Positions 32,895-53,918 of a stretch of DNA of 64,000 nucleotides are shown here, piece after piece. The stretch spans positions 764-64,763 of the forward strand of contig JAGAAL010000035.1 of NCBI GenBank assembly GCA_017615245.1. The letters are read 5' to 3'. Source of the stretch: Bacteroidaceae bacterium. Its GTDB lineage: Bacteria; Bacteroidota; Bacteroidia; Bacteroidales; Bacteroidaceae. A program made the position numbers and the translations under genes. Position 1 is the stretch's first letter; each line of letters begins with the position of its first letter. The notes below the pieces were generated by a model. The model saw nothing but the letters and a program-made list of their open reading frames with translations. It searched no databases and had not been told where the DNA came from.

Positions 32895-32902
32895 CAAAAT
32901 TA
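32895..32902 (-). promoter_or_regulatory. -7 box TAATTTTG (minus strand) for the leu operon
   Basis: The plus strand reads caaaatta, an exact TAnnTTTG on the minus strand. Confidence 0.55.
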
Positions 32903-33195: not shown

Positions 33196-33270
33196 CGCCC
33201 GTGGCAATATCTTGCAGCGGGCGGGGCAATATCTTGTGGCGGGCGTGCGAATGTCTTGCGGCGGCCGCCA
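33190..33270. repeat. GC-rich 22-bp periodic repeats (ggcaatatcttgNNgcgggcg twice, plus a degenerate third) containing a perfect 12-bp inverted repeat
   Basis: ggcaatatcttg occurs at 33203 and 33225, and gcgaatgtcttg at 33247. The inverted repeat is ttgccccgcccg (33190-33201) with cgggcggggcaa (33218-33229). Confidence 0.85.
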
Positions 33271-33441
33271 AAAGACTGTACCCTCATGATAAAGTTTATA
33301 GTTGAAAGTTTATAGTTTATAGTCAGTTGAATGAGTTGATGGTTTAATAAGTTAGCAGAGTATCGTCTGCACTCCTGTAACTCCTCTTCTAAAGACTAAA
33401 GTCTAGAGTCTAAGGGCTAAAGCCTTTTATCTTTCTGAGTG

Positions 33442-33449
33442 CAAAGATA
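33442..33449 (-). promoter_or_regulatory. Orphan -7 box TATCTTTG (minus strand), part of the palindrome tatcttt-N8-aaagata
   Basis: The plus strand reads caaagata. The mirror box TATCTTTC lies on the plus strand at 33428-33435. No CDS follows either box. Confidence 0.35.
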
Positions 33450-33494
33450 CGAATTTTTTTACTGATATGCAAATTATTTCCCTTAAAAATTACC

Positions 33495-33532
33495 ATAAAA
33501 AAGAGGTGCCAGACTTTTGGTCGGACACCTCT
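33495..33532 (-). terminator. Rho-independent terminator ending the SusC/D-FAS1-CotH operon
   Basis: Minus-strand RNA is agaggtgtccgac-caaaa-gtctggcacctct, giving a 13-position stem with one mismatch, followed by UUUUUUAU. Confidence 0.75.
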
Positions 33533-33556: not shown

Positions 33557-35632
33557 TTATGGTAACGGCAGATACCATTTACCTCCCTTGAGTGCATCGG
33601 CACGAGAATCGTACTCAGCAGCACCCTTACGACGAGCGACCTGATTTGCGATGAAGTCAGGATCGTTATAATACATCGCATAGCGCATCAAGTCGAAGAA
33701 ACGATAGCCTTCGAACATACCTTCGAGTGCTTCCTCATCGAGAATCATCTTCTCGAGAGCTGCCTGATAGAGAGGCACACTTGCTCTGTATGCATCATCC
33801 TGAGCTTGTCTCAAATTATAACTTGTCTGGTTAATGTCCTGATAAAGCTGATTGAGTGCAATTGAGTCAGAATCAGATTCATAGACATATACATAGTCTG
33901 TCCATGTATTACGTGAGCTGTTGTACTCTTCTTCGATGATTCCGCGGTAGTTTGCGTAATAATAATCAAGACTATCCTCTGGGATGATATGGATGTCATG
34001 CTCGTCAGAAACTGCTGCATAACGCTTGTTCAACGAATCAGACAGAATCTGCAATGCATCGCTCTCTGCCCAGATAGCAGCATCACGTGGAAGCACATAG
34101 TACTTGTTATAGTATGAGTCACCACAACCACGAGAGTGAACTCCCTGCATGTTAACAGTTACATTAGGCTGAGCTGCCATAGAAGAATGCTTGTCAACAA
34201 AAGCAGTGCTTGACCATGAGTAGAGGCTACCCAGGAAGTAAGTGCTAACGTCATACAAATTATTACGTTCAACACGTGAAACGAAATTACTCATCGTGCT
34301 TGGAGAAATACCATACTTGAGGACAGCGAATGCAGTCTCTGGGAATCCAGCACGGTTGAGTGCCTCAGCAAAGTGGAGCCATACAATGTTCTTGCGGAAT
34401 ATTGTGAAGGATTGCAACTTGCTGTCCGGGCCTTCGTTCGATCTTGAAGTAGCATACTTCATAATGTGCTGACGATCCTTAGCAAAGCGGTCGGTGTAGC
34501 GGTCGCTCACTTGTGAGCGGTCGTAAACAGCTTGCAGACGGAGGTCGCCCATTTCGAGTGAATCTTCCCATTCTACCTTTTCTGTACTATAGATAGTATC
34601 GCGGTTACCCATTTCCTCGAAGTATCCGCACCAGATCTGTTCTTGTGACAATTCACGGATACGCTTTGAAGGAACTACAGGTACATAGTAGTTGTTCTCG
34701 AACTGTGAGTTGAAGAAGCCATAGAGTTCGCTCCATGTTCCATCGTAAGCACAGGTATCAAGAGGGATAATGGCAATACGGTCTTCAGTGATAGAATATT
34801 CACCACTGGTATTACGCATACGACGATCACCCCAAGTAACTGCTGTGGTTCCTGTCGTCACTTCCTTATTGGTGTAGCAGAAGTAGTCGTGGTAGTAACG
34901 GCAAGCCTCAACAAAGTCGCTCTGATTCTGGGTGAAGCAACCTCTCCAAAGATAGAGTTCTGCCAGCATCAAACGAGCAGGAATGAAGAACATAGAACTG
35001 GTCATACCATTCATATCGCCAAAGTCTGGCATTTCAATCACCTTTGATGCATAAGGTTTCAAGTCATTGATGAAATACGTACAGATTTGGTTCATGTCGG
35101 CACGGTTGCTTGCATTTGCAAGGATGTCATCAGCGTCACCTGAATTGAGCACTGGATCGAGGACGAATGGAACCTGGCCATACATCTTAGCCAGTTCCAG
35201 ATAAGTCCATGCACGGAATACACGAACAGCCTGAATTTCTTTTTCGAAATGTTTACGGTTGTGTGACACATAGTTAGAGTCAACATAATTCAGATAAACG
35301 TTACATGCATTGACAACTGCATAGTAGTCGGAAATCTGGTTGTACTCATTGTCTGTTGGGATGTTATTGCTCATCACATCCTGCAAAGAGGTTTTAGCCA
35401 CTGTAGGATCAAGGTCAACGAGGTCGGCACGGAGTTCACCGAGTACGACAGTACGATCGACCAGACTCTGCATGCGATTGACGATACCCATAAGCTGGTA
35501 TACCGTATCCTGTGGAGCAAGATTCGTTGTATGCAACTCATCTTCTACAGAAAGCATATCTTCGCACGAAGTAGTAGCAGCTCCGAGTGTAACAAGGAGC
35601 AAGCCTGAAAATATGATTGATTTTGTTTTCAT
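33557..35632 (-). CDS. SusD/RagB family nutrient-binding outer membrane lipoprotein
   Basis: 691 aa. Lipobox GAATTSC, a TPR-like N-terminal half, and position immediately downstream of a SusC gene. Confidence 0.85.
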   Translation of the reverse strand: MKTKSIIFSGLLLVTLGAATTSCEDMLSVEDELHTTNLAPQDTVYQLMGIVNRMQSLVDRTVVLGELRADLVDLDPTVAKTSLQDVMSNNIPTDNEYNQISDYYAVVNACNVYLNYVDSNYVSHNRKHFEKEIQAVRVFRAWTYLELAKMYGQVPFVLDPVLNSGDADDILANASNRADMNQICTYFINDLKPYASKVIEMPDFGDMNGMTSSMFFIPARLMLAELYLWRGCFTQNQSDFVEACRYYHDYFCYTNKEVTTGTTAVTWGDRRMRNTSGEYSITEDRIAIIPLDTCAYDGTWSELYGFFNSQFENNYYVPVVPSKRIRELSQEQIWCGYFEEMGNRDTIYSTEKVEWEDSLEMGDLRLQAVYDRSQVSDRYTDRFAKDRQHIMKYATSRSNEGPDSKLQSFTIFRKNIVWLHFAEALNRAGFPETAFAVLKYGISPSTMSNFVSRVERNNLYDVSTYFLGSLYSWSSTAFVDKHSSMAAQPNVTVNMQGVHSRGCGDSYYNKYYVLPRDAAIWAESDALQILSDSLNKRYAAVSDEHDIHIIPEDSLDYYYANYRGIIEEEYNSSRNTWTDYVYVYESDSDSIALNQLYQDINQTSYNLRQAQDDAYRASVPLYQAALEKMILDEEALEGMFEGYRFFDLMRYAMYYNDPDFIANQVARRKGAAEYDSRADALKGGKWYLPLP

Positions 35633-35653
35633 ATATTTACTGTTTTGTTTTCT

Positions 35654-35679
35654 CTGTTCCTCCCCGAAGGGAGAAACAG
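35654..35679 (-). other. Stable RNA hairpin with a UUCG tetraloop in the SusC-SusD spacer
   Basis: Minus-strand RNA is cuguuucuccc-UUCG-gggaggaacag, an 11-position stem with one mismatch. No U-tract follows. Confidence 0.6.
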
Positions 35680-35689
35680 ATGAGTTTGA

Positions 35690-38600
35690 TTACAAGTTAA
35701 ACTTAACTCCGAGTGTGAAACTACGACCTGAAGGAGTAAATCCTGCATTGATACCCTGTAACAATGAACTGTTAGAGCAAGACACTTCTGGATCAGCACC
35801 TAAGTACTTGGTGAATGTCAACAAGTTGTTGGCTGCTGCCCAAATAGTGATACCCTGCAAGAACTTGTTTTCAGGAGAGAGAGGAAGTTTGTAGCTCAAA
35901 GTGATGTTCTTCAACTTGAGGTAAGAACCATCTTCAATCCAGCGGTCAGAGAAACGGCTGTTGCCCATTGGGTCATTGTATGTAGCCTGAGGTATATCGG
36001 TCTGCTGACCTTCAGCAATCCAACGGCGACATACAGCTGTTGTCTGGTTAATGAAATCGCTACCACCTTCAAGAACTGAGCGCTGGTAGTTGTAAATATC
36101 ATTACCAAGACTGTAGTTGAAGTTAACAGCTACGCTGAATGACTTACCGAAGTGGAGGTTTGCATGGAGGTTTCCGTAAATATCTGGGTTAGGATCGCCA
36201 ATGATTACACGGTCGGCCTCTGTGATGAGATTATCGTTGTTCATATCAACAAATCTCATATCACCTGCCTTGAAGTCAATCTTGTTGCCTGCTTTGTCGA
36301 GGATACCAAGATTAGCAGCCTGTGCTTCTGCAGTAGTTGCAAAAACTCCATCGGTCTTGTAACCGTAGAATACACCAAGTGGGCTTCCCACAACAGTCTG
36401 AATTGTTCCGTTGTAGATGTCGGTTTCAATAGACTGTACGTTATTTGGAAGCTGAGTGACTTCGTTCTTATAGTGACCTACGTTAGCACCGAGTTCAAAT
36501 TTGAATTTCTTATTATTAACAACCTTTGCAATAGCAGCCACGTCGTAACCTTCGTTCTTCATGGCACCATCATTGGTCCAATACTGCTTGATACCGGTAG
36601 GATAAGCAATAGCGCCGAGTGTTGCAAGGTTGCTTGTCTTTGCATAGAAGTAGTTGAGCTTCACGTTCAAACGGTTGTTAAAGAAATTACCTTCTAAGCC
36701 GACATTGAAACGGTTGGTGCTCTCCCAGCGAAGTTTTGAGTTTCCGATATTCTCAAGGCCGATACCTACGGCTTTCTCTTTGAGGAAGCTACGAGCACTC
36801 ATGTAAGTAAATGCTGCATTGTTATCATAAGAATCGTTACCCAATGATTCGAATCCCGCGTTGAGCTTCAACATGTTGATGCCACGACTTGGACGGAACC
36901 AGTCTTCGTTGCTGATGACCCAAGCTCCTTGAATGGATGGGAAGAATCCCCATGTAACACCAAACAACTTAATACCAGCATCAGCCTGCTTACCGAAGCG
37001 TGAAGAAGACTGGAATGCGAATGATCCCTGAAGATAGTACTTCTCACGATAGTTGTAATCAATGTTGCCGTACCAGTTGATTGACTTCCATGTTTCATCC
37101 ACACCTTCTGCGTGACGGTTACGAGTAGCCTGGTCAGGAGTCTTATCGTTACCTGAATCGTATGCATGGGTGTAAGAATCTTTGAAGTTATCGTTGAGGT
37201 AGCGAACACCACCGAAGATATCGAAACGATGTTTACCCAATGGGAGGGCAAGGTCGAAACGAGTATCACTCATCAAAGCCTTATGCTTATAGAAGCTGGT
37301 ACCTGTAGAGTTTTGAACCGTACCAACGTTCTTCACGTAGTAGTTTGGCATACCCTGAACTGGAGTGTAATAGATTTCACTGCAGCTGAGCTGAGAGTAT
37401 GCAAACTGCTCCTGGAGGGTGAAGTTGCGATTGACGTGCCATACTGGAGTAACAACGATGTTTACATCGGTATTGTCCACACGGTTCTTGTTCAATGCAT
37501 CAGCATATTTCAAGATACCGAGAGGGTTGGCCAATGAAGCCTTGCTACCAAGAGCTTCTGAGAGGTAGTCGTCAGCATCGGACACGAATGTTGATATCTT
37601 ACCATCGGTTGAGAAGTCGTAAGGAGCCACGAATGGAGACTTCATCAGTGCAAGCACGTTAGGAGAAGAGATAGCATTTGCCTGGAACTCAGGAGTGAAA
37701 CCATCATCTCTCAAGTTACGCTTCAAGTTTGCATAAGCTACGTCGAAACGAGTGGTCAACTTGTCTGTCAAGACAATATCTGAATTGAATCGGATATTGA
37801 AACGGTTTACATTGTTCTTCTTCAGTGTAGACTGAGAATCAACGTAACCAACAGAGAGGTTGTAGTTAGCAACTTCGTCACCACCTTGGATGTGGATACC
37901 GTAATTCTGAGAAAATGCCTCTTCAAATACGACGTCTTTCCAATCCGTGTTGTTGTGATACATATTATAATAATAATAGGTAGGATCGGTCTGCAAAAAC
38001 TTGAAGTTCTCCAGTTTACTACCCGCAGTCTTCAAAAGACCTGATGCGTATGCACGATACTGATTTGCATCCATAATATCAACAGATGAAGGAATCAGTT
38101 CTATACCACCACTGATATTCACATCGATGACGGTCTTCATGCTGGTGTTACGCTTAGTAGAGATAAGAATCACACCGTTGGCACCCTGAGCGCCGTAGAT
38201 GGCAGTAGCGTTCTTCAGAACCTTGATTTCAGCAACATCATCCATGTTGACATTGGCCAACGGGTTGTTCCAATAACCATTGTGCAACATTGTTGAGCTA
38301 TACATCATATCATGGATTACTCCATCAATAATGATGAGCGGCTGAGAAGATGCGTTGATAGAGTGGAAACCTTCAACAAACATACTAACACCCATACCCG
38401 GGATACCAGTACGTGAGATTGAGTGGACATCACCACCAAAACGGTTCTGCACCTCCTGGTCTAAGGTCCAAGCTGTTGATGTACCAAAATCTTTGGTTGT
38501 CACACTTTTTGCCGCAGATGTCTTCGTCACATAATCCTCGAGATACTGATCTGAGAACAATTTGATGTCAACACCTTCAGCACGGTCGTTGATAGCCACC

Positions 38601-38968
38601 TGTGTAAAGTTATAACCTTCGAGATCGGCAGAGAGTGAAGTAACGAAAGTAGGAACGCTGATAGTATATGTTCCGTCTTCGTCGGTCATCGCAGCATAGA
38701 AGCTATTGTTGAACGACTTCACTTTAACACCGGCAAGTGGTTCACCTGTTGTTGCATCAATTACCTTACCAGAAACTTCCTTCATTGGATATTTCTTGAG
38801 AGGCTTCTGTACTTTCTTCTTTACAGGAGCTTCAATCTCTTCCGTATATTCTGCATCATCATCTTGTGCAGACATAGGGAGAACTCCTATGCAGAATATC
38901 ATAGTTGCAATTCCTGCCTTGCAGAAACGCAGCATATTATTTTCAAAATATGTCTTCATATAATTCAT
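35690..38968 (-). CDS. SusC/RagA family TonB-linked outer membrane protein
   Basis: 1092 aa. Contains a carboxypeptidase-regulatory-like domain (VSGKVIDATTGEPLAGVKV...DGTYTISV), a plug and a 22-strand-type barrel ending in FTLGVKFNL. Confidence 0.92.
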   Translation of the reverse strand: MNYMKTYFENNMLRFCKAGIATMIFCIGVLPMSAQDDDAEYTEEIEAPVKKKVQKPLKKYPMKEVSGKVIDATTGEPLAGVKVKSFNNSFYAAMTDEDGTYTISVPTFVTSLSADLEGYNFTQVAINDRAEGVDIKLFSDQYLEDYVTKTSAAKSVTTKDFGTSTAWTLDQEVQNRFGGDVHSISRTGIPGMGVSMFVEGFHSINASSQPLIIIDGVIHDMMYSSTMLHNGYWNNPLANVNMDDVAEIKVLKNATAIYGAQGANGVILISTKRNTSMKTVIDVNISGGIELIPSSVDIMDANQYRAYASGLLKTAGSKLENFKFLQTDPTYYYYNMYHNNTDWKDVVFEEAFSQNYGIHIQGGDEVANYNLSVGYVDSQSTLKKNNVNRFNIRFNSDIVLTDKLTTRFDVAYANLKRNLRDDGFTPEFQANAISSPNVLALMKSPFVAPYDFSTDGKISTFVSDADDYLSEALGSKASLANPLGILKYADALNKNRVDNTDVNIVVTPVWHVNRNFTLQEQFAYSQLSCSEIYYTPVQGMPNYYVKNVGTVQNSTGTSFYKHKALMSDTRFDLALPLGKHRFDIFGGVRYLNDNFKDSYTHAYDSGNDKTPDQATRNRHAEGVDETWKSINWYGNIDYNYREKYYLQGSFAFQSSSRFGKQADAGIKLFGVTWGFFPSIQGAWVISNEDWFRPSRGINMLKLNAGFESLGNDSYDNNAAFTYMSARSFLKEKAVGIGLENIGNSKLRWESTNRFNVGLEGNFFNNRLNVKLNYFYAKTSNLATLGAIAYPTGIKQYWTNDGAMKNEGYDVAAIAKVVNNKKFKFELGANVGHYKNEVTQLPNNVQSIETDIYNGTIQTVVGSPLGVFYGYKTDGVFATTAEAQAANLGILDKAGNKIDFKAGDMRFVDMNNDNLITEADRVIIGDPNPDIYGNLHANLHFGKSFSVAVNFNYSLGNDIYNYQRSVLEGGSDFINQTTAVCRRWIAEGQQTDIPQATYNDPMGNSRFSDRWIEDGSYLKLKNITLSYKLPLSPENKFLQGITIWAAANNLLTFTKYLGADPEVSCSNSSLLQGINAGFTPSGRSFTLGVKFNL

Positions 38969-38981
38969 TGTTTAGGAGTTA

Positions 38982-40715
38982 CTATTCTTCATTATCTGGA
39001 GCTACAACTGGAAGATCGTCTTCGTCAGCTTTCACTGGCATTCCGTGTGGACGGAGAATCAGACGGTCAAACAACATACGACGAGAGAAGTCCTTAGTCT
39101 CCTTTGTAGACACATAAGACTGAATCTGAATCATCACACCAGCCTTGTTGGTTTTATAATAGCACTCAGTGAACTTCAAGGTACCCAAGAAGATGGAGTC
39201 GACCTTTTCAGGATTGCTGCGGAAGTTGGTTTCCTTTCCATCAGGGTCAGCAGGATTCTTCAATACCTCATTACGAGTCTTTGGCCATTGTGAACTAGCA
39301 TCCGTATCCTTGTTCGTACGATAGAACATATTGACACGGAACTGATATGCCTTCAAAGAGTCAGCTTCAGAGCTCAAATTCCTACCATACTTCAAAGGAA
39401 CCGTTACCAAATATACATCGTACTCACCAGACAGTGTGTTTGGAATATTGAAAGCGATATATGGCTGGGCAGAAGCCGTCTTAGGAATTACATCCAGATA
39501 AGCACGTTCAGAAATTCCAGGATGGATATTATCTGTTCTGACTGTATAGTCACAGTTCTTCGTAAAGATGTAACCCTTTTCGTCTTCATCCATGTTAATG
39601 TTACCAGTGCTTTCGGCTTCCAACTTGATCTCATGGAAGAACGCATCGTAGATTGACGTTGGGAACAAATCGGTCTTGTACACAATACCATTACTACAAG
39701 TCACCTTCTCGTAATACTTATCCGGAGCAAGGAGTCCACCCTCATCAAATGGTTTGTAGAACACGTTGTGCTCTGGGTCCCAACGGCTATAAGTCGTCGT
39801 TACCAATGAGTCGTTAGAGTAGATGTTTGCATTGCGGTTGTAGAACAACGAATTCAATGTGAAGTAGTTTGAATAATACTGCTGCAAAGAGTCGCGGTCG
39901 TCCTCATGAATATTAAAGTTGAAATAGTCCTTCACAAGGTTGTAACGCTCGTTGTAAGCTTCCTTACGAGGAGCAATCACCAAGTAGTTGGAATCTTCAC
40001 GATAGATGTAAGAATCGAGACGCTGCAACAAACGGTTTGCCTTAATCATCACGGAGTCAACATAGATTCGATTTCCGTCACCGTCTACACCACGATAAAC
40101 GCTTCGGTTAACGTCCAAAGAGTCATCGTCATAATATCTGATAATGGTGTACATAGAATCGATGTCAGGATCTGTTTCCAACAGCTCATAAATGTTAGGA
40201 TGGAATGGAAGATCTGAATTCAACACATGCAGAATACCATTGTTACAAACAGTATTAACAGCCTTTGCATGTACAGAGTCAACACCAACAACACCATTGG
40301 TCAAGGTTGTCTTCTTCTGATTGAGAAGCATAACATCCTGCTTGGTTGAGTTAGAAGAGTAGTTGTAACGTGCAATGTGGTTCTTTACAAATCGGGTAAT
40401 CACCTGATCCTTGTGACCATTATTAATCTCTCTGAGAAGGCTGTCTTTATTGAACGAGCCATTCACTGGTGCAAATACTGTTACTAATTGACTCTCATTG
40501 AGAAGTGCATCATAGCCTGTTGCGTCAAGGATTTCCACGAAATCCGTTAACCCTTCAGACTTAAGTTGCTGATAGATGGTGGCATCTACTACATTTCCAG
40601 TTGCCAGGCTTGCATCGTAGTGCTCATCCCATGTATCTGAACAGGCATAGCTCACCAGCAAGCCAGCGAACACCAAGACGCCTGTACGGATTGATTTATT
40701 TATATTCTTATTCAT
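38982..40715 (-). CDS. Fasciclin (FAS1) domain lipoprotein with a roughly 330-aa C-terminal domain of unknown function
   Basis: I start at the ATG at 40715 (MNKNINKSIRTGVLVFAGLLVSYAC lipobox). FAS1 H1 and H2 motifs are LVTVFAPVNGSF and NGILHVLNSDL. Confidence 0.8.
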   Translation of the reverse strand: MNKNINKSIRTGVLVFAGLLVSYACSDTWDEHYDASLATGNVVDATIYQQLKSEGLTDFVEILDATGYDALLNESQLVTVFAPVNGSFNKDSLLREINNGHKDQVITRFVKNHIARYNYSSNSTKQDVMLLNQKKTTLTNGVVGVDSVHAKAVNTVCNNGILHVLNSDLPFHPNIYELLETDPDIDSMYTIIRYYDDDSLDVNRSVYRGVDGDGNRIYVDSVMIKANRLLQRLDSYIYREDSNYLVIAPRKEAYNERYNLVKDYFNFNIHEDDRDSLQQYYSNYFTLNSLFYNRNANIYSNDSLVTTTYSRWDPEHNVFYKPFDEGGLLAPDKYYEKVTCSNGIVYKTDLFPTSIYDAFFHEIKLEAESTGNINMDEDEKGYIFTKNCDYTVRTDNIHPGISERAYLDVIPKTASAQPYIAFNIPNTLSGEYDVYLVTVPLKYGRNLSSEADSLKAYQFRVNMFYRTNKDTDASSQWPKTRNEVLKNPADPDGKETNFRSNPEKVDSIFLGTLKFTECYYKTNKAGVMIQIQSYVSTKETKDFSRRMLFDRLILRPHGMPVKADEDDLPVVAPDNEE

Positions 40716-40728
40716 AATAATATATTTT

Positions 40729-42783: not shown

Positions 42784-42791
42784 AGTGTTAA

Positions 42792-44657: not shown

Positions 44658-44670
44658 TGTTCCTGATTTT

Positions 44671-47600: not shown

Positions 47601-47970
47601 GCAGACCTACGTTTTCGGTCTTCTTCACTGCCTGGATAACGACTGGTTGAATTTGAGTCGCACTTTCCATCACAATCTTGAACACCTTTTTATTAATAGG
47701 AAGACTTTGCGTCTTATAACCGATATATGAAACCTGGATATGGTCCTTAGGATTCACTACCTTGAATGAGAAGTTACCATTAATATCCGTAACTCCATGG
47801 GCAACGATACGCTTATTATTGTCAATTTCGACAACATTCACCATCATCAATGGTTCATCTGAATCAGAGACAGTACCAGAGATAATGTCGCCAGCCTTCA
47901 CCTGTGCCTGTGCCATTCCACAGAAACAAGCCAAAAGCATTAATATTGATATTATTCTTTTCATACTCAT
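44671..47970 (-). CDS. SusC/RagA family TonB-linked outer membrane protein
   Basis: 1099 aa. Contains a carboxypeptidase-regulatory-like domain (ISGTVSDSDEPLMMVNV...NGNFSFKV), a plug and a barrel ending in FTLGINVGF. Confidence 0.92.
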   Translation of the reverse strand: MSMKRIISILMLLACFCGMAQAQVKAGDIISGTVSDSDEPLMMVNVVEIDNNKRIVAHGVTDINGNFSFKVVNPKDHIQVSYIGYKTQSLPINKKVFKIVMESATQIQPVVIQAVKKTENVGLQIPITEISTAQQTIDMKEFEGLAMTSVDEALQGRIAGLDIVMNSGNLGAGSTMRLRGVGTITGDAEPLIVVNGNASDLRIDMNQKDDYNEEKFAELLQVNPEDIESITVLKDAAATAIWGSRGANGVIEIRTKRGQRGKTRVTYTYRFSGTWSPRGMKMLNGDDYTMFLKEAYYNPTLQSSIADNTSSDYIPEINYDPNYSQYHMFNNNTDWETIINQTGQNHDHYVSLSGGGDKARFRVAGGYTHQLGTVINQKLDRYTTRVALDYYVSTKIQVSTNFSLTYTENKRTATTSGGLADLAYEMMPNLAPYEEDENENPTGDFYIMQKEYTSSQLNDRLSKGNPLAAAYLGKRLTNDLSLNPEFIFRYDILGTEPKEHRLQYQGQVSFSVSANDSHNFTPSVLQTDGWNGGNSNVASTSQSKSNSFSTRHSLTYTPHFNNEDHSLMFMVRGEYSTGNSSNQSVSRKWLPTGDITSALAGGVLSSASGSVSAPSKSENFAFQSHYSFRGKYSFDFTARFDKSNSNPKKWGAYYGISGRWNISDETFIKEKLKWINMLSLSIGWGRSGRPSGGSTSMYSTYSSDGSYLGVTAVAPQQIRLKIIRPANNDTWNFGSHFAFLRNKISGDVQVYTSRNEQVSSYPIPTSSGYSNLPAKLQGIVRNNGWEFNLNVNNFIRRGKFSASFNMAFSNNRNQILEMDAMVLDQMNAEFNHENGQYLSRVQIKNPIGSIYGFRYKGVYSYSEWSATEIPGVSGPDAPVARNAAGEVILNENGRSKPMMFDYGGIQYEFKGGDAKYEDINHDGNINELDIVYLGSSLPKLTGGFGFQINYGRFNFHMRFNYRIGQKVINEARMKAENMYDNNNQSRAVNWRWHNEGDVAVIPRALHDYGYNWLGSDRFMEDASFLRMNFITMSYSVPTKQLTQFGIKSLSFNLNFNNVFVLTKYSGADPEVSQGGYRAATDGGRTPRSKQFTLGINVGF

Positions 47971-47972
47971 AG

Positions 47973-50894
47973 TTATTTACGTCTACGTTTTGTTTCAGCT
48001 GCAGCCTCCTCTTCATCTGGATTATAAATCTCAAATGGAGAATAGATGAACTGATTGTTTTCTGGTAATGTCAAATCTGCACCTTCTTTATATTTATATA
48101 AGAGAGGTTTATCAATGGCATGAAGCACAACGCTTGAAGATGTTTCAATCATCGTAGCACTTTCTGCCTTCGCATTATTCAACCAATATTCACGAGCCAT
48201 GACGTTATACATCTTGTCCTTATTAACGGCTTGTTGGTTAGAGCAAACACCCGTAACTTTGAGGTCTGTTCCATTGTTGTCAACAGTAATTCTATATGAA
48301 CGGCCTGTTGAAGGATTGGTCTTGGCAGTTTCGTAACGGCCACTTGCGAAATCTGGCGCCACTTTCACATTGCCTTCCTCGTCCCTCTCAAAAAGTTCGC
48401 CTACTTCGTCAATAAAGATTGAATTATCCTGGATATGATACTTCACAAAGTCGAGCATCACCTTACGGATACGGGCAGCAGTTTCAGTAAGAGTATCGAA
48501 AGCGATAGAATCACCACAAGTATCAATGAAGTGATACTGGATCAGTTTATAGAGAAGAGGATCTTCGTCTGGATCTGTTGGTACTTTGATCTTGGTTGAA
48601 TCATCGTAATCAATATCAATTGCTAAGTCAAGCATATCCATGGTTGGAAGGCCTTTCTTACGAGCATCTTCCATCGCTGCATTGGTTGGAGCATAAATGG
48701 TATAATGATAAGTGTTCAACAGGTAGTTAACACTCTCATTCGCTTTTTCTGGAATGTAAATCAAGTTACCATTCTTTGACGTAGACGACCAGTTAACTTT
48801 GGAACCAGTACTTACTGCCAACGCACCACATTCACGAAGCAGCTCATAGAACTCTGAGAATTCTCCATCCTCTGCTTCATGGTCTGCAAGGATGTCACTA
48901 ACTGCCTTGTGTGCCGTATAAACAGGAGTCTCTACAATATATGACTTACCGTTCTCCATATTATAAACACTTGACACAGTCAGAGGTGCATCATTCTCAA
49001 TTTGCCAACCACCGGCAACAGTCATCTGACCAGGCACATTGATTGTACCACCAACCTTCACGAAGTTCCTACCCTTAGTCTGATAATAAGACTTTCCTTC
49101 AACAACATCACCTATCACGATGATATTATCAAGAAGGTCTTCAATACGGTCGAACAACTGGTCGGTTGAAGAACTACCAACAATCGTTCTCAATGAATCA
49201 GTTTGGAGCCATGTTCCGTCATCTTGTCTCTCTGCCTTATATACTACAGCCTGAATATGAGAGAACAAGTTGCTTCCAGGATTTGGATTCATCATGAACT
49301 TCCAAATATGGGTTTCTGACTGACCGAGTGAAACAGGGTCAATGTAAGTCAGCAAACCGTCATTAACCGGGATGAAGAAACTATAGCGAGAAACCATAGA
49401 GTTCAAATAGGCTTGGTATTCCAACAATGAGATGGCGTTATAAATTACGCTAAGGTTCTCTGTAACAACTGCCGGGAAAAGTACTGAAGAATATGACATT
49501 GGCGAGAACACCTTATTCGTCTGATAGACTGCTCCATTACATGCAAGGAACACACTATCAACATCTGATGTGGTAATACCCATTTCCATCGCAGCATCAT
49601 TCAATACTGACTTGAACTTAGAAGGAACAGATCCAACCAAAGAATAAAGTTGGTTGTTCTTGATAAGTTCTACGATAACGCGATCAGGAATATTGTCCCA
49701 ACTACCAAAGTTGTCTTTGAGGACTTTACCGCCGCCATTATCAAACCAGTCAGTGAGAGCAGCATCGGTAGGAACCAACATACAACCCATATCTTCCATC
49801 ACCTCATCACGGTCACGGTCGTTCAGTGTACCTGGGCTATAACGATTCCATCCTGGGTCGAACTTCAACAACTCTGTCAACTGCAATGAATATAACTTAT
49901 CCTTATCCTGGTTACGCTCTGTAGAAGTGATGCCATTACTTTCACTTCCGCGCGATGCAAAATATGATTTCTGATAAACAGAGTCAACCGTTGTCTTATA
50001 GAGACGGTTATACTCGCGTGTGATATCATAATTGTAGAATGGTGCTGCGAAACGCTCCAGTAATGAAGAATAGATGCTAAACTGTGGTCTTACACGAATC
50101 AATTCAGCCATATTGTCAAGTGGCAACATCACTTTGTTCACTTTGTGCAAGAAACCGTTCTTACAGAAAATGTTTGCTTCAACTACCTTACAGTCGTTTA
50201 CATAAGCATCATCTGAAACATGAGTTCCAATCGGGTCGTTGTAGAGGAAGTCTACGTCATGACCAGTAACCATGTTCTGCTCCATGAAACGTGGCAAGAA
50301 GTGAATCATAGGTGGTGCACCCGAAAAGTCCTTGAAGAGCACAATGGTATCATGCGTCTGTGCCAAATTCTTCCAATACTTAGTAAGTTCTCCTCCTAAT
50401 CTTGGAATCTGAGGATCTGTAGAGCTCACAACCAAAACGGAATCATAAGTCTGCAGAGATGCCGTACGACGCATACATTCGCCTTCGATAGGGCCTTGTA
50501 CGCTTGAAAGCAGACTGATTGTAGCTGGATTATCAATCATCGATGAACGAAGAATCAGTTTCTTCTGAGCCTCTGACAATTGATCATAACTTTTCACACC
50601 CCATTTATTATTTGCATAGAATGCCGCAAAAGCGTCATCATCTGCAATAAACAGGGTTTTACTACCTGTCTTTGAGAGAGTTGCCTTCTCACCCAGGTCA
50701 TCAATTAACTGCAAGAAATTCTTGTAGTTTCCCTGATCTTCCATATAACCATAGATGGTGTTCAGTCCAGTAGGCTGTTCTTCATCGAGGTTATAGTCTG
50801 GTGTACAACCAAAGAAACCAAGAGTTGCAGCACACACAGCACTTCCCATGAGAAGATGCTTGCGTAGTTTGTTACTCTGAAAGTTAAACAACAT
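47973..50894 (-). CDS. Large lipoprotein with three fasciclin (FAS1) domains
   Basis: Lipobox TLGFFGC. The three H1/H2 motif pairs are KTLFIADDDAF with NGFLHKVNKVM, CMLVPTDAAL with NGAVYQTNKVF, and YTIYAPTNAAM with VVLHAIDKPL. Confidence 0.8.
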   Translation of the reverse strand: MLFNFQSNKLRKHLLMGSAVCAATLGFFGCTPDYNLDEEQPTGLNTIYGYMEDQGNYKNFLQLIDDLGEKATLSKTGSKTLFIADDDAFAAFYANNKWGVKSYDQLSEAQKKLILRSSMIDNPATISLLSSVQGPIEGECMRRTASLQTYDSVLVVSSTDPQIPRLGGELTKYWKNLAQTHDTIVLFKDFSGAPPMIHFLPRFMEQNMVTGHDVDFLYNDPIGTHVSDDAYVNDCKVVEANIFCKNGFLHKVNKVMLPLDNMAELIRVRPQFSIYSSLLERFAAPFYNYDITREYNRLYKTTVDSVYQKSYFASRGSESNGITSTERNQDKDKLYSLQLTELLKFDPGWNRYSPGTLNDRDRDEVMEDMGCMLVPTDAALTDWFDNGGGKVLKDNFGSWDNIPDRVIVELIKNNQLYSLVGSVPSKFKSVLNDAAMEMGITTSDVDSVFLACNGAVYQTNKVFSPMSYSSVLFPAVVTENLSVIYNAISLLEYQAYLNSMVSRYSFFIPVNDGLLTYIDPVSLGQSETHIWKFMMNPNPGSNLFSHIQAVVYKAERQDDGTWLQTDSLRTIVGSSSTDQLFDRIEDLLDNIIVIGDVVEGKSYYQTKGRNFVKVGGTINVPGQMTVAGGWQIENDAPLTVSSVYNMENGKSYIVETPVYTAHKAVSDILADHEAEDGEFSEFYELLRECGALAVSTGSKVNWSSTSKNGNLIYIPEKANESVNYLLNTYHYTIYAPTNAAMEDARKKGLPTMDMLDLAIDIDYDDSTKIKVPTDPDEDPLLYKLIQYHFIDTCGDSIAFDTLTETAARIRKVMLDFVKYHIQDNSIFIDEVGELFERDEEGNVKVAPDFASGRYETAKTNPSTGRSYRITVDNNGTDLKVTGVCSNQQAVNKDKMYNVMAREYWLNNAKAESATMIETSSSVVLHAIDKPLLYKYKEGADLTLPENNQFIYSPFEIYNPDEEEAAAETKRRRK

Positions 50895-51077
50895 AATTTT
50901 TAGAATTATTAATTATTGATTTTGATATATTTTATTGATTATTCAACATCATTTTTTTATCTCGCTAAGATAACCTACTGAACTTCAGCTATCGTCTATG
51001 TGTATGTAAACCCATCTTGATTTTGTTTTCTTGTTCATTTTTTAATTGTTTAATTGGTTATTAATTGTTAATATATA

Positions 51078-53540
51078 TTAATTCAGCGTGATATTCATTA
51101 TAAACCTGTAATAATATCGATCATCGAACACAAGAAAAACACTTGCCGTGCATTTACTTCCGCTTACCGGTGCCATAAGATCAGAGGTATAAGCAAAATC
51201 TAAAGTACTTGCGCCTGGATTGTAACCCACTTTACACTCACTGCTCCCCCATGATGTGGCTGTACCATCGAACATCATATAAAATCCGTTAGAAGATGTG
51301 AGGTTTGAGGTCAGTTCGCCTGTTTTGATGTCTATACATGTCATATATTTCAGGTTGTCTACGGTTGCTCCTTGGGGGAACTTTGCCACAATCTCATTCA
51401 AATTGATTGAAATTGGCTGTTTGCTATAAGCTTCAACTGAACTCATATCATACGATTTGGTAATTATTTCTTCACCAACCTTTTGCATGTTCCGCCATGA
51501 ATAAAGCGACGGATCTACGTTGATATTATCATAAGTACCCTCTGGTATGCAGTCGATACCGAAATGGACGGTTACCGTAATGTAAGAAGTTTGTCTTTTC
51601 TGTGTAATGGCATACCGCATGGTTGCTACATGCTGGTCACCTTTCTGGCAATTGTTCGGATGGCAGCCATAGTTCCAACTATACACATCGCTGGTAGCAA
51701 GATTTCTTGGCTCTATAAACACATGCGAGTTACCTCCATAATCAACCACATTACCTTTATCATCGAACCATGCGCCCCATGTACCCTGTGCGGTATGTCC
51801 TCCTTCTTTGCCATTAGAGTTGAGTGCCGACAACTTTATAGTTGCATTGCTGAATTCATTGTCAGACAATCCCAACATTTCGGCTAATGTAGATGGAGAG
51901 ATTTCAATATTAGCAGACTGAGAATAACCATCAGCCATGTTCAATAGGAGATAGATATCCATGTTCGTACCAGAAACATATGTATTAAGGATGCCATAGT
52001 CCATTTCTTCTTCTGCTCCTTCTGTTCCTGTTTGAGGATATGCATTGATTATCTGGTCAAGATAAGTTACACGATTGTCAAGCCATGTCTTCATCTTTGA
52101 TAATTCCTGGTTCACATCATATGTCGTTGAATGGCCCCAACCTCCCCAGCCGGTGTTTTCAACAATTGGCCAACGCATTTTATTGCGGGCGTATGCACCT
52201 TTGTTGAGTTCATTCACATATTGCTCCACGATTTCCCAATTACGTGTGACAATTGAGTCTTTGACAGAATTCCAAAGTTCCTTGTATTCTCTAGTATAGC
52301 TATCAGATTTAAACATATCGGTAAAGAACCTCGGTGTGGCTCCGTACATTCCCTTACGGTTTGCAGGATCTGTTCCTAATACCAATTCATGATAATCACC
52401 GAAATAACGGAAAATGTTACCATCATAGAATGTACCCCAATCAAAATCGAAACCTGCATCCCAATCCCAGAATGGACCCATCGCCCACTTACCATTGCCG
52501 TCCTTGTACATAAAGATGCTACGTGGGGCACAAATCTCTACGTTCTCTACCAGTTCCTGAATCATTGCCATCGTCATAAACGACTTCATATCCATCAGAG
52601 AGTCAAGCATCTCATAATCAACAGCCTTGATTGCGTTTTCAAGTTCAGCAAAAACCATCCGGATAGAATCTTTTGTCTGCTCATCTACATCATCAGGGTA
52701 TTTAACACACATTGGCATATTGTAAACTGTTGACCAGAAATTGTCTGTAGATTCGGGACTCAGCTCTGGGCCGTCATCTTTGTCCATAGACAACAAGATT
52801 CCTTCGTTTTCGGAAACATCTACACGATTTTTACCTTGCTGTACCTGCTCCGTCAACTGATACAATCCCTCATATTCTCCATCAACAAACAATTCCACAA
52901 AACGAGTATGATTTACGTATGGCATGCCCATCCAGCGAGCAACTTCGAATACATAGGTATTCATCATGCTGGTAAGATCACGATAGTTTGCTAACAGCAC
53001 CCAACTCTTTGCTTTTGCCAGACCTAGCATCTTATGCTTGTCATTCAACTTGATGCGATAAGGCTTCTTGGGATAGATACTCCAAGTTGAGTTCCCCCTG
53101 CCACGAATGCTACCAGAACCAGAATACCAGTTATAGCCATCCTTACCATCTAAAGACACAACACAATCCACATACTCTTCTCGGGAATTGACTCCCACAA
53201 AGTCTTTGGTAGTTACACTTAAAGTGTACACCTGATACTTGTTATGTGACTGGAGGTCTTCTGACACTTCATCAACGAATGTAACACTGTCAATCATTGA
53301 AATGGCATACGGCACATTAATAGAGGATGCCTCATTAATTTCTTCAGCAGAGATACGGAAAAAGTGGCCATCTGAAGAGAAATCTGAATAAGGAAACTGA
53401 CTAATTTCATAAGGGAAACTCCATACAAAGTCGTACTTTGTGTCGGAATGAGTGTTTATCTTATACCAATTCTGAGCAACGGACGGACAGACCATCATTA
53501 TGGCCGTCAAGAATATTAAAAATTTACTTGCAAGTCTCAT
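51078..53540 (-). CDS. Secreted CotH (atypical kinase fold) family protein with a C-terminal duplicated domain of unknown function
   Basis: I start at the ATG at 53540 (MRLASKFLIFLTAIMMVCPSVAQ). CotH-like segments are KKPYRIKL, WVLLANYRDLTSMMNTYVFEVARWMG, FVELFVDGEYEGLYQLTEQV and FWDWDAGFD. Confidence 0.75.
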   Translation of the reverse strand: MRLASKFLIFLTAIMMVCPSVAQNWYKINTHSDTKYDFVWSFPYEISQFPYSDFSSDGHFFRISAEEINEASSINVPYAISMIDSVTFVDEVSEDLQSHNKYQVYTLSVTTKDFVGVNSREEYVDCVVSLDGKDGYNWYSGSGSIRGRGNSTWSIYPKKPYRIKLNDKHKMLGLAKAKSWVLLANYRDLTSMMNTYVFEVARWMGMPYVNHTRFVELFVDGEYEGLYQLTEQVQQGKNRVDVSENEGILLSMDKDDGPELSPESTDNFWSTVYNMPMCVKYPDDVDEQTKDSIRMVFAELENAIKAVDYEMLDSLMDMKSFMTMAMIQELVENVEICAPRSIFMYKDGNGKWAMGPFWDWDAGFDFDWGTFYDGNIFRYFGDYHELVLGTDPANRKGMYGATPRFFTDMFKSDSYTREYKELWNSVKDSIVTRNWEIVEQYVNELNKGAYARNKMRWPIVENTGWGGWGHSTTYDVNQELSKMKTWLDNRVTYLDQIINAYPQTGTEGAEEEMDYGILNTYVSGTNMDIYLLLNMADGYSQSANIEISPSTLAEMLGLSDNEFSNATIKLSALNSNGKEGGHTAQGTWGAWFDDKGNVVDYGGNSHVFIEPRNLATSDVYSWNYGCHPNNCQKGDQHVATMRYAITQKRQTSYITVTVHFGIDCIPEGTYDNINVDPSLYSWRNMQKVGEEIITKSYDMSSVEAYSKQPISINLNEIVAKFPQGATVDNLKYMTCIDIKTGELTSNLTSSNGFYMMFDGTATSWGSSECKVGYNPGASTLDFAYTSDLMAPVSGSKCTASVFLVFDDRYYYRFIMNITLN

Positions 53541-53590
53541 TTTGAATCCGTTGTTAATAAAATTTGGTACCTTCAGCATTTATTGGTGTA

Positions 53591-53598
53591 CAAACTTA
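53591..53598 (-). promoter_or_regulatory. -7 box TAAGTTTG (minus strand) upstream of the CotH-like gene
   Basis: The plus strand reads caaactta. Lies 51 nt upstream of the ATG at 53540. Confidence 0.5.
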
Positions 53599-53918
53599 GC
53601 TATTTTTTTTTGAATAGATAATATATTTTAACAAAAAAATGCTTGTTTCCCTCTATTTTATTCATAAAATAGTTTAAAATCACTGTTTTGACATCAAAGA
53701 CAAAGTCTTTATCGACAAAGCGCAACCAAATTCTATGCCCAAGAACAATGCAATTGTCAGTCAAACATCCGCGTCAAAGAGAGCGACAAAATATAATTAC
53801 ATAAATATTCATAAATAACAACACAACAAAGAATAAATCCATACATGATTTCGGGATAAAAGATTAAGATGAAATGGTTAAGTTATCTTCATTTTACACG
53901 TGATAATTTGGGGCTGTA

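Follow-up and report, generated by a model that had tools for sequence, protein, structure and literature searches.

An eight-gene SusC/SusD locus between housekeeping operons

The window analysed here, a stretch of 64,000 nucleotides, comes from the metagenome-assembled genome of an uncultured, Prevotella-like bacterium of the rumen or gut. It carries the genes that would bind and import the substrate in a Sus-like polysaccharide utilization locus (PUL) for plant fibre. Eight open reading frames (ORFs) on the minus strand, referred to as g1 to g8, lie at 33557-53540 and are separated by gaps of 183, 2, 13, 8, 13, 13 and 57 nt, counted from the start codons of an earlier note on this DNA. The genes and signals are:

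53916-53958, minus strand: terminator of the rpoA-rplQ operon (15-bp hairpin, then U9; -19.6 kcal/mol, z = -4.7)
53591-53598, minus strand: putative -7 promoter box TAAGTTTG (TAnnTTTG), 50 nt ahead of the g1 start codon (ATG, 53540)
51078-53540, minus strand: g1, CotH-like protein, 820 aa, predicted to be secreted or periplasmic (Pfam and AlphaFold)
47973-50894, minus strand: g2, predicted surface lipoprotein of 973 aa with multiple FAS1 domains (Pfam Fasciclin 1.9e-13, 51.2 bits)
44671-47970, minus strand: g3, SusC-type TonB-dependent transporter 1, 1099 aa (TIGR04056, 626 bits)
42792-44657, minus strand: g4, SusD-type lipoprotein 1, 621 aa (SusD_RagB 1e-18, SusD-like_3; lipobox LVSC-DVE)
40729-42783, minus strand: g5, predicted surface lipoprotein of 684 aa (Pfam Fasciclin 1.4e-18, 67.7 bits)
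38982-40715, minus strand: g6, predicted surface lipoprotein of 577 aa with an N-terminal FAS1 domain at 55-167 (Pfam Fasciclin 5.7e-10, 39.5-39.9 bits)
35690-38968, minus strand: g7, SusC-type TonB-dependent transporter 2, 1092 aa (TIGR04056, 563 bits; CarbopepD_reg_2, Plug)
33557-35632, minus strand: g8, SusD-type lipoprotein 2, 691 aa (SusD_RagB 6.1e-08, SusD-like_3)
33496-33532, minus strand: intrinsic terminator at the operon end (two-part stem of 12 base pairs, then U6)

The layout, gaps, lipoprotein signals and domain calls of the earlier note were borne out by the ORFs and by Pfam and NCBIfam profiles. The single -7 box that it placed upstream is the sole intergenic TAnnTTTG on the minus strand within the locus (TAAGTTTG, 53598-53591), and may act as a Bacteroidetes-type promoter box. 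The downstream intrinsic terminator that it reported folds as an RNA hairpin (33532-33502, -17.7 kcal/mol, z = -3.47) followed by U6. The terminator of the rpoA-rplQ operon is outside the locus itself and is a boundary that insulates it. Hairpins were folded directly because a generic scan for sigma-70 promoters and terminators, which returned nothing above shuffle expectation, overlooked the hairpin at the operon end. RNA folding revealed no stable structure in the 183-nt gap between g1 and g2 (z = 0.06), and an Rfam search of the whole window and of the leuA-proximal intergenic region gave nothing credible.

The flanks consist of housekeeping genes, rpsM-rpsK-rpsD-rpoA-rplQ upstream and leuA-leuCD downstream. 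Three ORFs upstream of g1 (201, 330 and 170 aa) fit an ECF sigma/anti-sigma system by size, but are rpsD, rpoA and rplQ. Among the eight proteins, Pfam and NCBIfam profiles detected no glycoside hydrolase, lyase, esterase, sulfatase or peptidase family and no hybrid two-component sensor (HTCS), sigma/anti-sigma or SusR family; for g1, g2, g5 and g6 the scan was taken down to E<=1 and still gave no enzyme or regulator family. The earlier claim that none of the eight contains a catalytic CAZyme or peptidase domain thus holds at the level of profile search. No HTCS or other regulator was found among the part of the window ORFs scanned with Pfam. Outside the locus, the CAZyme-type genes among the scanned ORFs were limited to a GH28 and an esterase, which share its strand but lie some 25 kb from it, beyond housekeeping genes; endo-xylanases of families GH10, GH98, GH5_21 and GH30_8 are absent from the window.

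FAS1 lipoproteins as candidate glycan-binding proteins

The FAS1 matches in g2, g5 and g6 (PF02469) all exceed the gathering score (cut-off 22), and the FAS1 fold is reproduced in the model of g5. Of the three FAS1 signatures previously attributed to g2, profile comparison (hhalign and hmmsearch) backs only two, at about 50-256 and 666-930. Two further H1/H2 motif pairs can be made out in g2 by eye only. In g6, profile comparison assigned no domain to the C-terminal half.

The AlphaFold model of g5 (pLDDT 83, pTM 0.79) comprises FAS1 domains at about 40-188 and 189-418 and a C-terminal CBM-like beta-sandwich at about 425-684. Using Foldseek, the FAS1 pair was matched to TGFBIp, periostin and fasciclin I (E 1e-12 to 1e-14). 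The non-FAS1 matches of g5 included 7EHG, Xyn30D (4QAW, a modular GH30 xylanase) and Cry-toxin entries; we take 7EHG as 'MiXBM' from its entry title alone, having found nothing relevant on MiXBM in the literature. The C-terminal domain gave matches of modest strength (E about 5e-5 to 3e-4, TM about 0.58 to a small target), and this fold similarity suggests a carbohydrate-binding domain in g5. Modelling of the C-terminal regions of g5 and g1, proposed earlier as a check, returned a CBM-like domain and a beta-sandwich, respectively.

The lipobox cysteine is followed by acidic residues in g2, g4, g5, g6 and g8 (in g6, SYAC-SDTWDEH), and the FAS1 lipoproteins adjoin SusD in every relative. Because they are lipoproteins with acidic residues after the cysteine, lie beside SusD and, in g5, appear to carry a CBM-like sandwich, g2, g5 and g6 are the most likely candidates to bind glycan at the cell surface, as the earlier note had supposed. 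As modelled, g5 would resemble the SusE/SusF-type surface glycan-binding proteins (SGBPs) of PUL 'utilisomes', which are non-catalytic surface lipoproteins encoded beside SusC/D with a terminal CBM-type beta-sandwich. Known SGBPs, however, are built from Ig-like or beta-sandwich domains, whereas the candidates in the window are based on FAS1; full-text literature searches turned up no paper on FAS1-based SGBPs. A protein combining FAS1 with a CBM-like domain would be an SGBP of a new structural class. The g5 family (306 clusters at the 50% identity level, E<=1e-30) is not exclusive to this locus, as some homologues were found outside the seven-gene core described below, one of them beside a GH127 and an HTCS and another in a non-PUL context.

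Two SusC/SusD pairs with no support for an old duplication

The adjacent susC-like and susD-like genes by which PULs are recognised are present as two tandem pairs. In g3, CarbopepD_reg_2 spans 30-111 and Plug 128-250. Neither g3 nor g7 has a Pfam match to STN, and both run from signal peptide through CarboxypepD_reg to Plug, in line with the earlier observation that they carry no STN extension; this fits the presence of HTCS beside orthologous cores.

The two FAS1-SusC-SusD modules had been interpreted as an old duplication, and we reject this on the scores. The match between SusC1 and SusC2 (204 bits, 24% identity) falls short of that between SusC1 and a SusC of known structure to which it is unrelated (8AA4, 229 bits). 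With phmmer there is no match between SusD1 and SusD2, and g2, g5 and g6 have only the FAS1 domain in common.

A conserved seven-gene core

We surveyed about 160 loci, 80 from genomes (drawn from 236 species hits) and 80 from metagenomes. Wherever the contig is long enough, the order FAS1 (~950 aa)-SusC-SusD-FAS1 (~690)-FAS1 (~580)-SusC-SusD is kept, with three odd cases (L023, L079 and L106), and it holds down to about 31-56% protein identity. The first gene of this core is g2: its full-length homologues in the 80 genome loci are 37-91% identical and always have SusC next, so that the position of a FAS1 protein ahead of the first SusC, already remarked on as unusual, recurs in related loci. 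The g6 orthologue always follows directly after the g5 orthologue, and g8 orthologues (34-91% identity) end the core in those metagenome loci that extend far enough. Between orthologous cores and the window, SusC proteins are 46-56%, SusD proteins 34-43% and FAS1 proteins 31-49% identical, with order unchanged. What is conserved is the block of seven genes as a whole, and the slot occupied by CotH varies.

At least 236 species genomes, most of them from rumen or hindgut Prevotellaceae, contain a relative of g2; one carrier, Paraprevotella xylaniphila, is cultured. In 36 of 62 loci, the rpoA-rplQ operon lies just upstream of the core. Like the window copy, its closer relatives (66-91% identity) and a 'naked' core, L175, have no adjoining CAZyme or sensor. 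The g5 orthologue of L175 is only 50% identical, and the recurrence of the enzyme-less arrangement in so distant a locus argues for a working configuration.

Enzymes and sensors beside orthologous cores

More distant relatives differ in their surroundings. Downstream of SusD2, 50 metagenome loci have 2.5 kb or more of flank. Of these, 19 encode a full-length HTCS (Reg_prop, HisKA, HATPase_c, Response_reg and AraC HTH domains), which in 17 is directly adjacent. The same flank contains GH98 in five loci, GH5-like genes in eight and GH30-like genes in five, along with GH115, GH31, GH97, GH43 with GH43_C2, SASA/CE6-like and GDSL esterases, and MFS_2 accompanied by GH43 and a xylose-isomerase-like gene. 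Upstream of g2, Paraprevotella genomes including P. xylaniphila carry MFS_2-GH10-GH43-GH67 on the same strand, the set found in the Bacteroidetes xylooligosaccharide operon MFS-GH10-GH43-GH67. Neighbour clusters were labelled by Pfam scans of one to four representatives each, and at this family (not CAZy subfamily) level the predicted enzyme set of orthologous cores is of the complex-xylan (heteroxylan) type.

The commonest upstream neighbour is of another kind. A GH43 with GH43_C, whose best match is the rumen endo-1,5-alpha-L-arabinanase 4KCA (E = 3.6e-147), is encoded by the first large gene upstream in 25 of 62 genome loci, 440-650 nt from g2. We read its conserved C-terminal tail as a T9SS sorting signal; given this tail, the distance and the variable slot, it may be an independent gene.

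These neighbours qualify the earlier conclusion that the operon has neither CAZyme nor regulator, which stands for the window copy and its close clade but not for the system, whose relatives have both. The window copy has lost, or never had, the enzymes and sensor that relatives keep. In relatives the HTCS is followed by a family of roughly 1250 aa; a 1262-aa ORF in the window (1478-5266) was rejected as a member, since only a conserved C-terminal tail of about 45 aa is common to the two.

Comparison with known systems

PUL-XylL of B. ovatus (BACOVA_03417-03450) is a locus for complex glucuronoarabinoxylan, with GH98, GH30, GH115, GH31, GH97, GH43 and CE6 families, tandem SusC/D pairs and an HTCS; the endo-xylanase that acts on corn glucuronoarabinoxylan at the cell surface is its GH98 (Rogowski et al. 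2015, PMC4491172). It resembles the window core in having two tandem SusC/SusD pairs with non-catalytic surface lipoproteins alongside, and the orthologues of that core in its HTCS and enzyme families, which are the same or have GH5 in place of GH98. Its binders, however, are an inactive GH10 (BACOVA_03431) and BACOVA_03430, of unknown function, neither being described as FAS1 (PMC4491172). As the synteny of PUL-XylL was found only in B. ovatus and B. xylanisolvens (Rogowski et al., PMC4491172), the FAS1 core is a separate lineage. In contrast to PUL-XylL, the window copy has a FAS1 protein before the first SusC, two more between the SusC/D pairs, and no enzymes or sensor.

Tandem SusC/SusD pairs also characterise the Xus cluster of Prevotella bryantii (xusA-E plus xyn10C; SusC-SusD-SusC-SusD-XusE-GH10), which is not known to include FAS1 proteins. 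RagAB of Porphyromonas gingivalis and the predicted two-gene PULs of P. copri such as PUL9 and PUL11 (PMC8631079) are like the window copy in having SusC/D without adjoining CAZymes or regulator; in the window, however, the lack of enzymes marks a derived or alternative arrangement of a core that elsewhere lies inside a full PUL. Candidate binding proteins of FAS1 type and a CotH accessory within a PUL are what sets this locus apart from better-known ones.

Substrate and proposed mechanism

We interpret the operon as the capture and import core of a PUL, in keeping with the surface capture and import machine proposed earlier, and consider its target to be, with better than even confidence, complex (glucurono)arabinoxylan, an arabinose-decorated hemicellulose. 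The ligand had been called not deducible from enzyme content; flanking of orthologous cores by HTCS and a predicted heteroxylan-type CAZyme set indicates otherwise. The substrate was assigned by orthology, at only 31-56% identity, because neither the window copy nor its close relatives have a CAZyme or sensor, and the specificity of the window copy could have drifted.

The neighbour sets are mixed, and the commonest upstream neighbour, the arabinanase-like GH43, points to arabinan rather than xylan. The same machinery might serve another glycan, either arabinan or the arabinose-rich side chains of pectin or arabinogalactan, an alternative that we regard as possible but unlikely. Besides the arabinanase-like gene in 25 of 62 loci, the g5 paralogue adjoining GH127, a beta-L-arabinofuranosidase family, and an HTCS would agree with it, as would the arabinan PUL of B. 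thetaiotaomicron, which has tandem SusC/D pairs too. Yet the remaining neighbours are of xylan type: GH10, GH67, GH115, GH98, GH30-like, GH5-like, a GH43 with a beta-xylosidase-type C-terminal domain, CE6-like esterases and an MFS_2 sugar transporter. No GH51 was seen among the representative neighbours scanned, and the arabinanase-like gene, in its variable slot and with its T9SS-like tail, may be independent of the core.

Far less probable is the import of peptides, proteins or another non-glycan nutrient, of the RagAB or BT2261-64 kind, in which FAS1 would bind proteins and CotH act on them. Eukaryotic FAS1 proteins do bind protein partners, the CotH of Bacillus belongs to a protein kinase family (PMC7821199), and eight genes without a CAZyme would suit such a role; however, orthologous cores repeatedly lie beside plant-cell-wall CAZymes and HTCS, no peptidase is consistently linked to them, and the g5 model includes a CBM-like beta-sandwich. 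The regulator type itself bears on this, in that HTCS are the regulators of glycan PULs. We give least credence to an adhesion apparatus that tethers the cell to plant fibre or host, with import secondary or absent, or to a decaying remnant left after loss of enzymes and sensor. FAS1 is a classical adhesion module, and the window copy sits without enzymes or regulator between housekeeping operons; against this, all eight ORFs are intact and retained by the clade in many samples (66-94% identity), both TonB-dependent transporters are still complete and have their plug domains, and the enzyme-less layout recurs in L175.

Under the arabinoxylan interpretation, the genes would probably be expressed as one transcript, bounded by the putative -7 promoter (53598) and the terminator (33496). 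Judging from lipoboxes and acidic residues, g2, g5, g6 and both SusD lipoproteins would be exported to the cell surface and would bind polymer or large oligosaccharides there, g5 partly through the C-terminal sandwich of its model. The two non-identical SusC/SusD pairs, going by their families, may import two size or decoration classes in a TonB-dependent manner. Depolymerising enzymes and HTCS would have to come from other parts of the genome or from the community, unless the cell does without them.

Prevotellaceae are dominant in the rumen and in the gut of people whose diet is rich in fibre, yet much less work has been done on their PULs than on those of Bacteroides. The persistence of a PUL core apart from enzymes and sensor bears on the sharing of breakdown products in fibre-degrading communities, and implies that functional uptake systems are overlooked when PULs are annotated by their CAZymes. 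With P. xylaniphila YIT 11841, a carrier is in culture in which the hypothesis can be tested directly.

The CotH/DUF4859 protein as a proposed accessory

The first gene, g1, encodes a signal peptide, an N-terminal beta-sandwich, CotH (~145-494; PF08757, 3.5e-40, 138.9 bits against a cut-off of 23.8), DUF4859 (~543-647; 1.1e-10) and a C-terminal beta-sandwich (~685-820). Its AlphaFold model (pLDDT 83) combines a CotH kinase fold with beta-sandwich modules, and Foldseek matched it to the B. cereus CotH kinase (5JDA/5JD9; TM (target) 0.70-0.72, prob 1.00). The protein thus agrees with the Bacillus spore-coat kinase CotH in Pfam family and fold, but is set apart from known CotH proteins by its signal peptide and its beta-sandwich modules, of which there are three with DUF4859 counted. 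Neither a PDB sequence search with g1 (phmmer) nor an 18-sequence CotH profile, which included two non-CotH sequences (L140, a GDSL esterase, and L161), matched Bacillus CotH.

Across 40 homologues N333, D359 and D361 are invariant and E335 is near-invariant (D in some relatives), forming the motifs N333-V-E335 and W-D359-W-D361; these are defined by conservation among the homologues. In B. subtilis CotH the catalytic residues are D228 and D251 (PMC7821199). As the signal peptide of g1 is of the ordinary type, without a lipobox, the protein is probably periplasmic or released, and we see it as an accessory in the variable slot.

It is conceivable, though we think it rather improbable, that g1 is an active extracytoplasmic kinase-fold transferase, targeted to glycan by its beta-sandwiches, which modifies incoming oligosaccharide or surface proteins of the uptake complex and, with the FAS1 lipoproteins, makes up a new class of Prevotellaceae PUL machinery. 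Such a PUL would have FAS1-based binding and one non-hydrolytic processing step. ATP is not expected outside the cytoplasm, and its supply to an extracytoplasmic CotH is doubtful. Like g1, the dockerin-bearing CotH in the cellulosomes of anaerobic gut fungi (PMC10978972) is tied to an extracytoplasmic apparatus that degrades plant cell walls. A recurrent CotH accessory would have a parallel in the CotH proteins, as yet unexplained, that fungal and bacterial cellulosomes contain.

DUF4859 is found elsewhere fused to GH127, adjoining the g5 paralogue and HTCS, a context that fits a carbohydrate-binding role. The slot upstream of g2 holds the arabinanase-like GH43, GH43 with CotH, or neither in relatives. 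CotH+DUF4859 proteins also close a different HTCS-containing PUL, and downstream of the core CotH recurs in L131 (Pfam), with a gene at the same place in L142 that is known by its similar size.

Organization of the locus

Positions 53579-33557 of the minus strand are filled by eight long ORFs as identified by ORF calling (g1 to g8, in transcription order). With the start codons chosen in the earlier note, their products are 820, 973, 1099, 621, 684, 577, 1092 and 691 aa in length, and the successive gaps between genes are 183, 2, 13, 8, 13, 13 and 57 nt. The eight-gene layout described in that note was reproduced in its ORFs, lengths, gaps and domain calls.

Features of the locus
g1, minus strand: CotH and DUF4859 domains (Pfam/NCBIfam)
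g2, g5 and g6, minus strand: Fasciclin (FAS1) domain (Pfam/NCBIfam)
g3 (SusC1) and g7 (SusC2), minus strand: SusC/RagA (TIGR04056, 626 and 563 bits)
g4 (SusD1) and g8 (SusD2), minus strand: SusD (Pfam/NCBIfam)
53598-53591, minus strand: -7 box TAAGTTTG, the sole intergenic TAnnTTTG on this strand within the locus
33532-33502, minus strand: end hairpin followed by U6, folding at -17.7 kcal/mol (z = -3.5)

In both SusC proteins (g3 and g7) a CarboxypepD_reg domain immediately precedes the Plug domain, and Pfam and NCBIfam reveal no STN domain in either. A lipobox cysteine followed by acidic residues is present in g2, g4, g5, g6 and g8; the signal peptide of g1 is of the ordinary type, and its cysteine is not conserved. 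With Pfam and NCBIfam none of the eight proteins matched a family of hydrolases, lyases, esterases, sulfatases, peptidases or regulators, and extending the search to E<=1 for the four non-SusC/D proteins (g1, g2, g5 and g6) brought up none either.

The upstream gene rplQ has a strong terminator of its own, and no structure was found on folding the 183-nt gap between g1 and g2. Together with the single -7 box and the end hairpin, these features make it plausible that the locus forms one transcription unit, insulated from the adjoining genes, which are housekeeping genes on both sides (secY-map-rpsM-rpsK-rpsD-rpoA-rplQ upstream, leuA-leuC-leuD downstream). Among the other window ORFs scanned with Pfam there is no hybrid two-component sensor (HTCS), and the sole CAZyme is a pectin-type GH28 adjoined by an alpha/beta-hydrolase esterase; the pair (6013-8765, minus strand) lies ~25 kb away, separated from the locus by housekeeping genes.

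A seven-gene core is conserved in order and, in many genomes, in position

The window's proteins recur on metagenome contigs from rumen and gut; an NCBI MAG with the label Bacteroidaceae bacterium encodes them too, its CotH being 100% identical. Full-length relatives of g2 form >3,000 clusters at 90% identity, and a scan of one genome per species recovered relatives in 236 species; the best 80 of these 236 are nearly all rumen or hindgut Prevotellaceae/Bacteroidaceae MAGs, the only cultured carrier among the 80 being Paraprevotella xylaniphila YIT 11841, whose orthologous locus lies on NZ_GL883836.1 at ~35.5-58 kb and beyond. We called ORFs in each fetched locus (L-numbers below), labelled them by their best phmmer match to the eight window proteins, and compared gene order across 80 genome loci and 80 metagenome loci. 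Wherever the contig was long enough, the order FAS(g2)-SusC1-SusD1-FAS(g5)-FAS(g6)-SusC2-SusD2 was held, with three odd cases (L023, L079 and L106), and it is retained down to identities of ~46-56% (SusC), 34-43% (SusD) and 31-49% (FAS1 proteins). The conserved unit, as judged from gene order, is this seven-gene block, referred to here as the core.

In 36 of 62 genome loci, as in the window, rpoA is found within four genes of the core, and this address is kept in relatives whose g2 is only ~40% identical. By this comparison, the rpoA-rplQ neighbourhood is an unusually stable chromosomal address for a polysaccharide utilization locus (PUL). Loci in which the rpoA-rplQ end of the ribosomal protein operon (window 53981-56107) lies close upstream of the core include L006, L009-L016, L019, L030 and L175, among others.

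Some variation was seen at the distal end of the core. Some Bacteroidales (L080, L086 and L162) have one more g2-type FAS1 gene after SusD2; in L080 this gene is followed by an unassigned 1457-aa protein, behind which a second g2-SusC copy begins, a tandem occurrence of the system. SusD2 itself falls into two length classes, ~690 aa (window 33557-35632 and its relatives) versus ~562 aa (others, e.g. L080:8241-9929), and alignment implies ~130 additional residues in the long form.

Orthologous cores are associated with sensor and hemicellulase genes

The interval between rplQ and g2 is a variable gene slot. Upstream sequence sufficed in 62 genome loci to identify the nearest large gene on that side: a GH43 with GH43_C, often with Laminin_G_3, in 25, CotH in 16, GH67 in four, and in three rpoA, i.e. 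there is no insertion. Several loci have CotH and then GH43. Paraprevotella carries MFS_2, GH10, GH43 and GH67 upstream of the core on the same strand.

Downstream flanks were tallied in the 50 metagenome loci that extend 2.5 kb or more past SusD2; each flank cluster was labelled by scanning one to four of its representatives with Pfam. A full-length HTCS (Reg_prop, HisKA, HATPase_c, Response_reg and AraC HTH domains) lies downstream of SusD2 in 19 of the 50, directly adjacent in 17. GH5-like, GH30-like and GH98 families occur there in eight, five and five loci respectively; further neighbours are GH115, GH31, GH97, GH43 with GH43_C2, and SASA/CE6-like and GDSL esterases, and another set comprises MFS_2 with GH43 and a xylose-isomerase-like gene. 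A family of ~1250-1330 aa is found within four genes of SusD2 in 17 of the 50 loci, directly after the HTCS or SusD2 (e.g. L116:16192-20031, L120:11749-15477 and L128:16117-20127). Neither Pfam, searched up to E<=1, nor the PDB sequences gave a match to this family, which may represent an enzyme or a binding protein yet to be described for PULs of this type.

In the window's own clade (66-91% identity) CotH alone lies upstream of the core, and in L091, the closest metagenome relative, a leuA-sized gene follows SusD2 as in the window. L175, whose g5 orthologue is 50% identical, has an entirely bare core between rplQ and rimP-nusA. Because both the window's clade and the distant L175 show it, the state lacking enzymes and sensor is real and recurrent, yet one state of an otherwise normal PUL. 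The earlier note's description of an operon with no enzyme and no regulator stands for the window copy and its close clade, but not for the system, in which relatives are flanked by HTCS and CAZyme genes.

FAS1 and CotH proteins

The AlphaFold model of g5 (pLDDT 83, pTM 0.79) has FAS1 domains at ~40-188 and 189-418, followed by a C-terminal beta-sandwich of ~260 residues (425-684). In Foldseek searches the FAS1 pair matches TGFBIp, periostin and fasciclin I (E 1e-12 to 1e-14). Among the significant non-FAS1 matches are 7EHG ('MiXBM'), Xyn30D (4QAW), which is a modular GH30 xylanase, and entries for Cry toxins; each of these contains a beta-sandwich, and we take them to match the predicted C-terminal domain. 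Two FAS1 domains of g2 are supported by profiles and two more by H1/H2 motifs identified by eye only; g6 has one Pfam FAS1 domain and a C-terminal half without a family match. The g5 family comprises 306 clusters (50% identity level) at E<=1e-30 and extends beyond the core, once beside a GH127-DUF4859 fusion and an HTCS.

The two FAS1-SusC-SusD modules had been proposed to be an old duplication, a proposal that fails on scores. SusC1 matches SusC2 at 204 bits (24% identity), less than the 229 bits at which it matches the unrelated solved SusC 8AA4; SusD1 and SusD2 have no mutual phmmer match, and the FAS1 domain is the sole part common to the FAS1 proteins.

The model of g1 (pLDDT 83) consists of an N-terminal beta-sandwich, the CotH domain, DUF4859 and an additional beta-sandwich, and its CotH domain aligns with the B. 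cereus CotH kinase (5JDA/5JD9) at TM 0.70-0.72 on the target. Across 40 homologues N333-V-E335, W-D359-W-D361 and many charged residues show little or no variation, which is compatible with a retained active site; sequence searches yielded no residue-level alignment of these motifs to B. subtilis D228 and D251. The linkage of CotH with PULs is repeated: CotH occurs upstream of the core, downstream of it in L131 (identified by Pfam; L142 has a gene of similar size in the same place), and as the final gene of another PUL. Dockerin-bearing CotH proteins are regular parts of anaerobic fungal cellulosomes (PMC10978972).

In L170-L172 a CotH(+DUF4859) protein 43% identical to g1 (around 10001-11887 in L170 and L171) closes a PUL of the order SusD, DUF6055, DUF6055, HTCS, 144-aa protein, CotH. 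The arrangement is abundant, given that one cluster of such CotH proteins has >1000 members. In L174 (7590-9989) DUF4859 is fused to an enzyme of GH127, a beta-L-arabinofuranosidase family, with a stand-alone g5-type FAS1 protein, a second DUF4859 protein, an HTCS and a CotH-LTD protein as neighbours. This fusion suggests that DUF4859 is a carbohydrate-binding module.

Probable substrate and mode of action

The enzyme families flanking orthologous cores are essentially those of PUL-XylL, the complex glucuronoarabinoxylan locus of B. ovatus, which has tandem SusC/D pairs and an HTCS; its GH98 is a surface endo-xylanase specific for corn glucuronoarabinoxylan, and some strains carry GH5_21 in its place (PMC4491172). 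The earlier view that the ligand is not deducible is therefore unsupported, and the apparent puzzle of an unclear ligand with neither enzymes nor regulator dissolves once relatives are compared. The target would most likely be an arabinose-decorated heteroxylan. The main alternative is arabinan; the slot GH43 family is nearest to the rumen endo-1,5-alpha-L-arabinanase 4KCA (E = 3.6e-147), and the wider flanking set is that of PUL-XylL. We are confident that the locus is a plant-glycan PUL core, consider xylan specifically to be at best marginally favoured, and regard the combined statement as somewhat probable.

The analysis establishes gene content, domain folds, conserved order and the association of orthologues with HTCS and hemicellulase genes. 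The capture-and-import reading of the earlier note is supported, as is its proposed binding role for the FAS1 lipoproteins. Surface-exposed FAS1 and SusD lipoproteins would bind polymer or large fragments, and the two differing SusC/D pairs would import these with TonB energy. The ancestral arrangement was probably regulated by the HTCS, which fits SusC proteins without an STN domain. In this genome, enzymes and sensor may be encoded elsewhere, or fragments may be scavenged from breakdown by neighbours. The locus is a PUL and therefore not categorically new. What is new is the proposed use of FAS1 proteins for binding, CotH as an accessory, the strict conservation of a seven-gene core by the ribosomal operon and the recurrent enzyme-less form; no paper on FAS1-domain proteins as PUL components or on CotH in PULs was found within an incomplete coverage of the literature.

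Other features of the window

The ~850-nt spacer between the terminator and leuA (window 32700-33490) is crowded with short tandem repeats, among them arrays of 22-nt units (33119-33179 and the GC-rich 33203-33264, with ~2.3-2.8 copies each) and 7- and 14-nt units; it contains a further TAnnTTTG box (33449-33442), and an Rfam search of it gave no credible match. The plus-strand ORF at 1478-5266 starts with TTG and encodes a 1262-aa protein that has a signal peptide but matches nothing in Pfam. The C-terminal ~45 residues of this protein are similar to those of GH43 proteins beside orthologous cores, and we read this shared segment as a candidate T9SS sorting domain.
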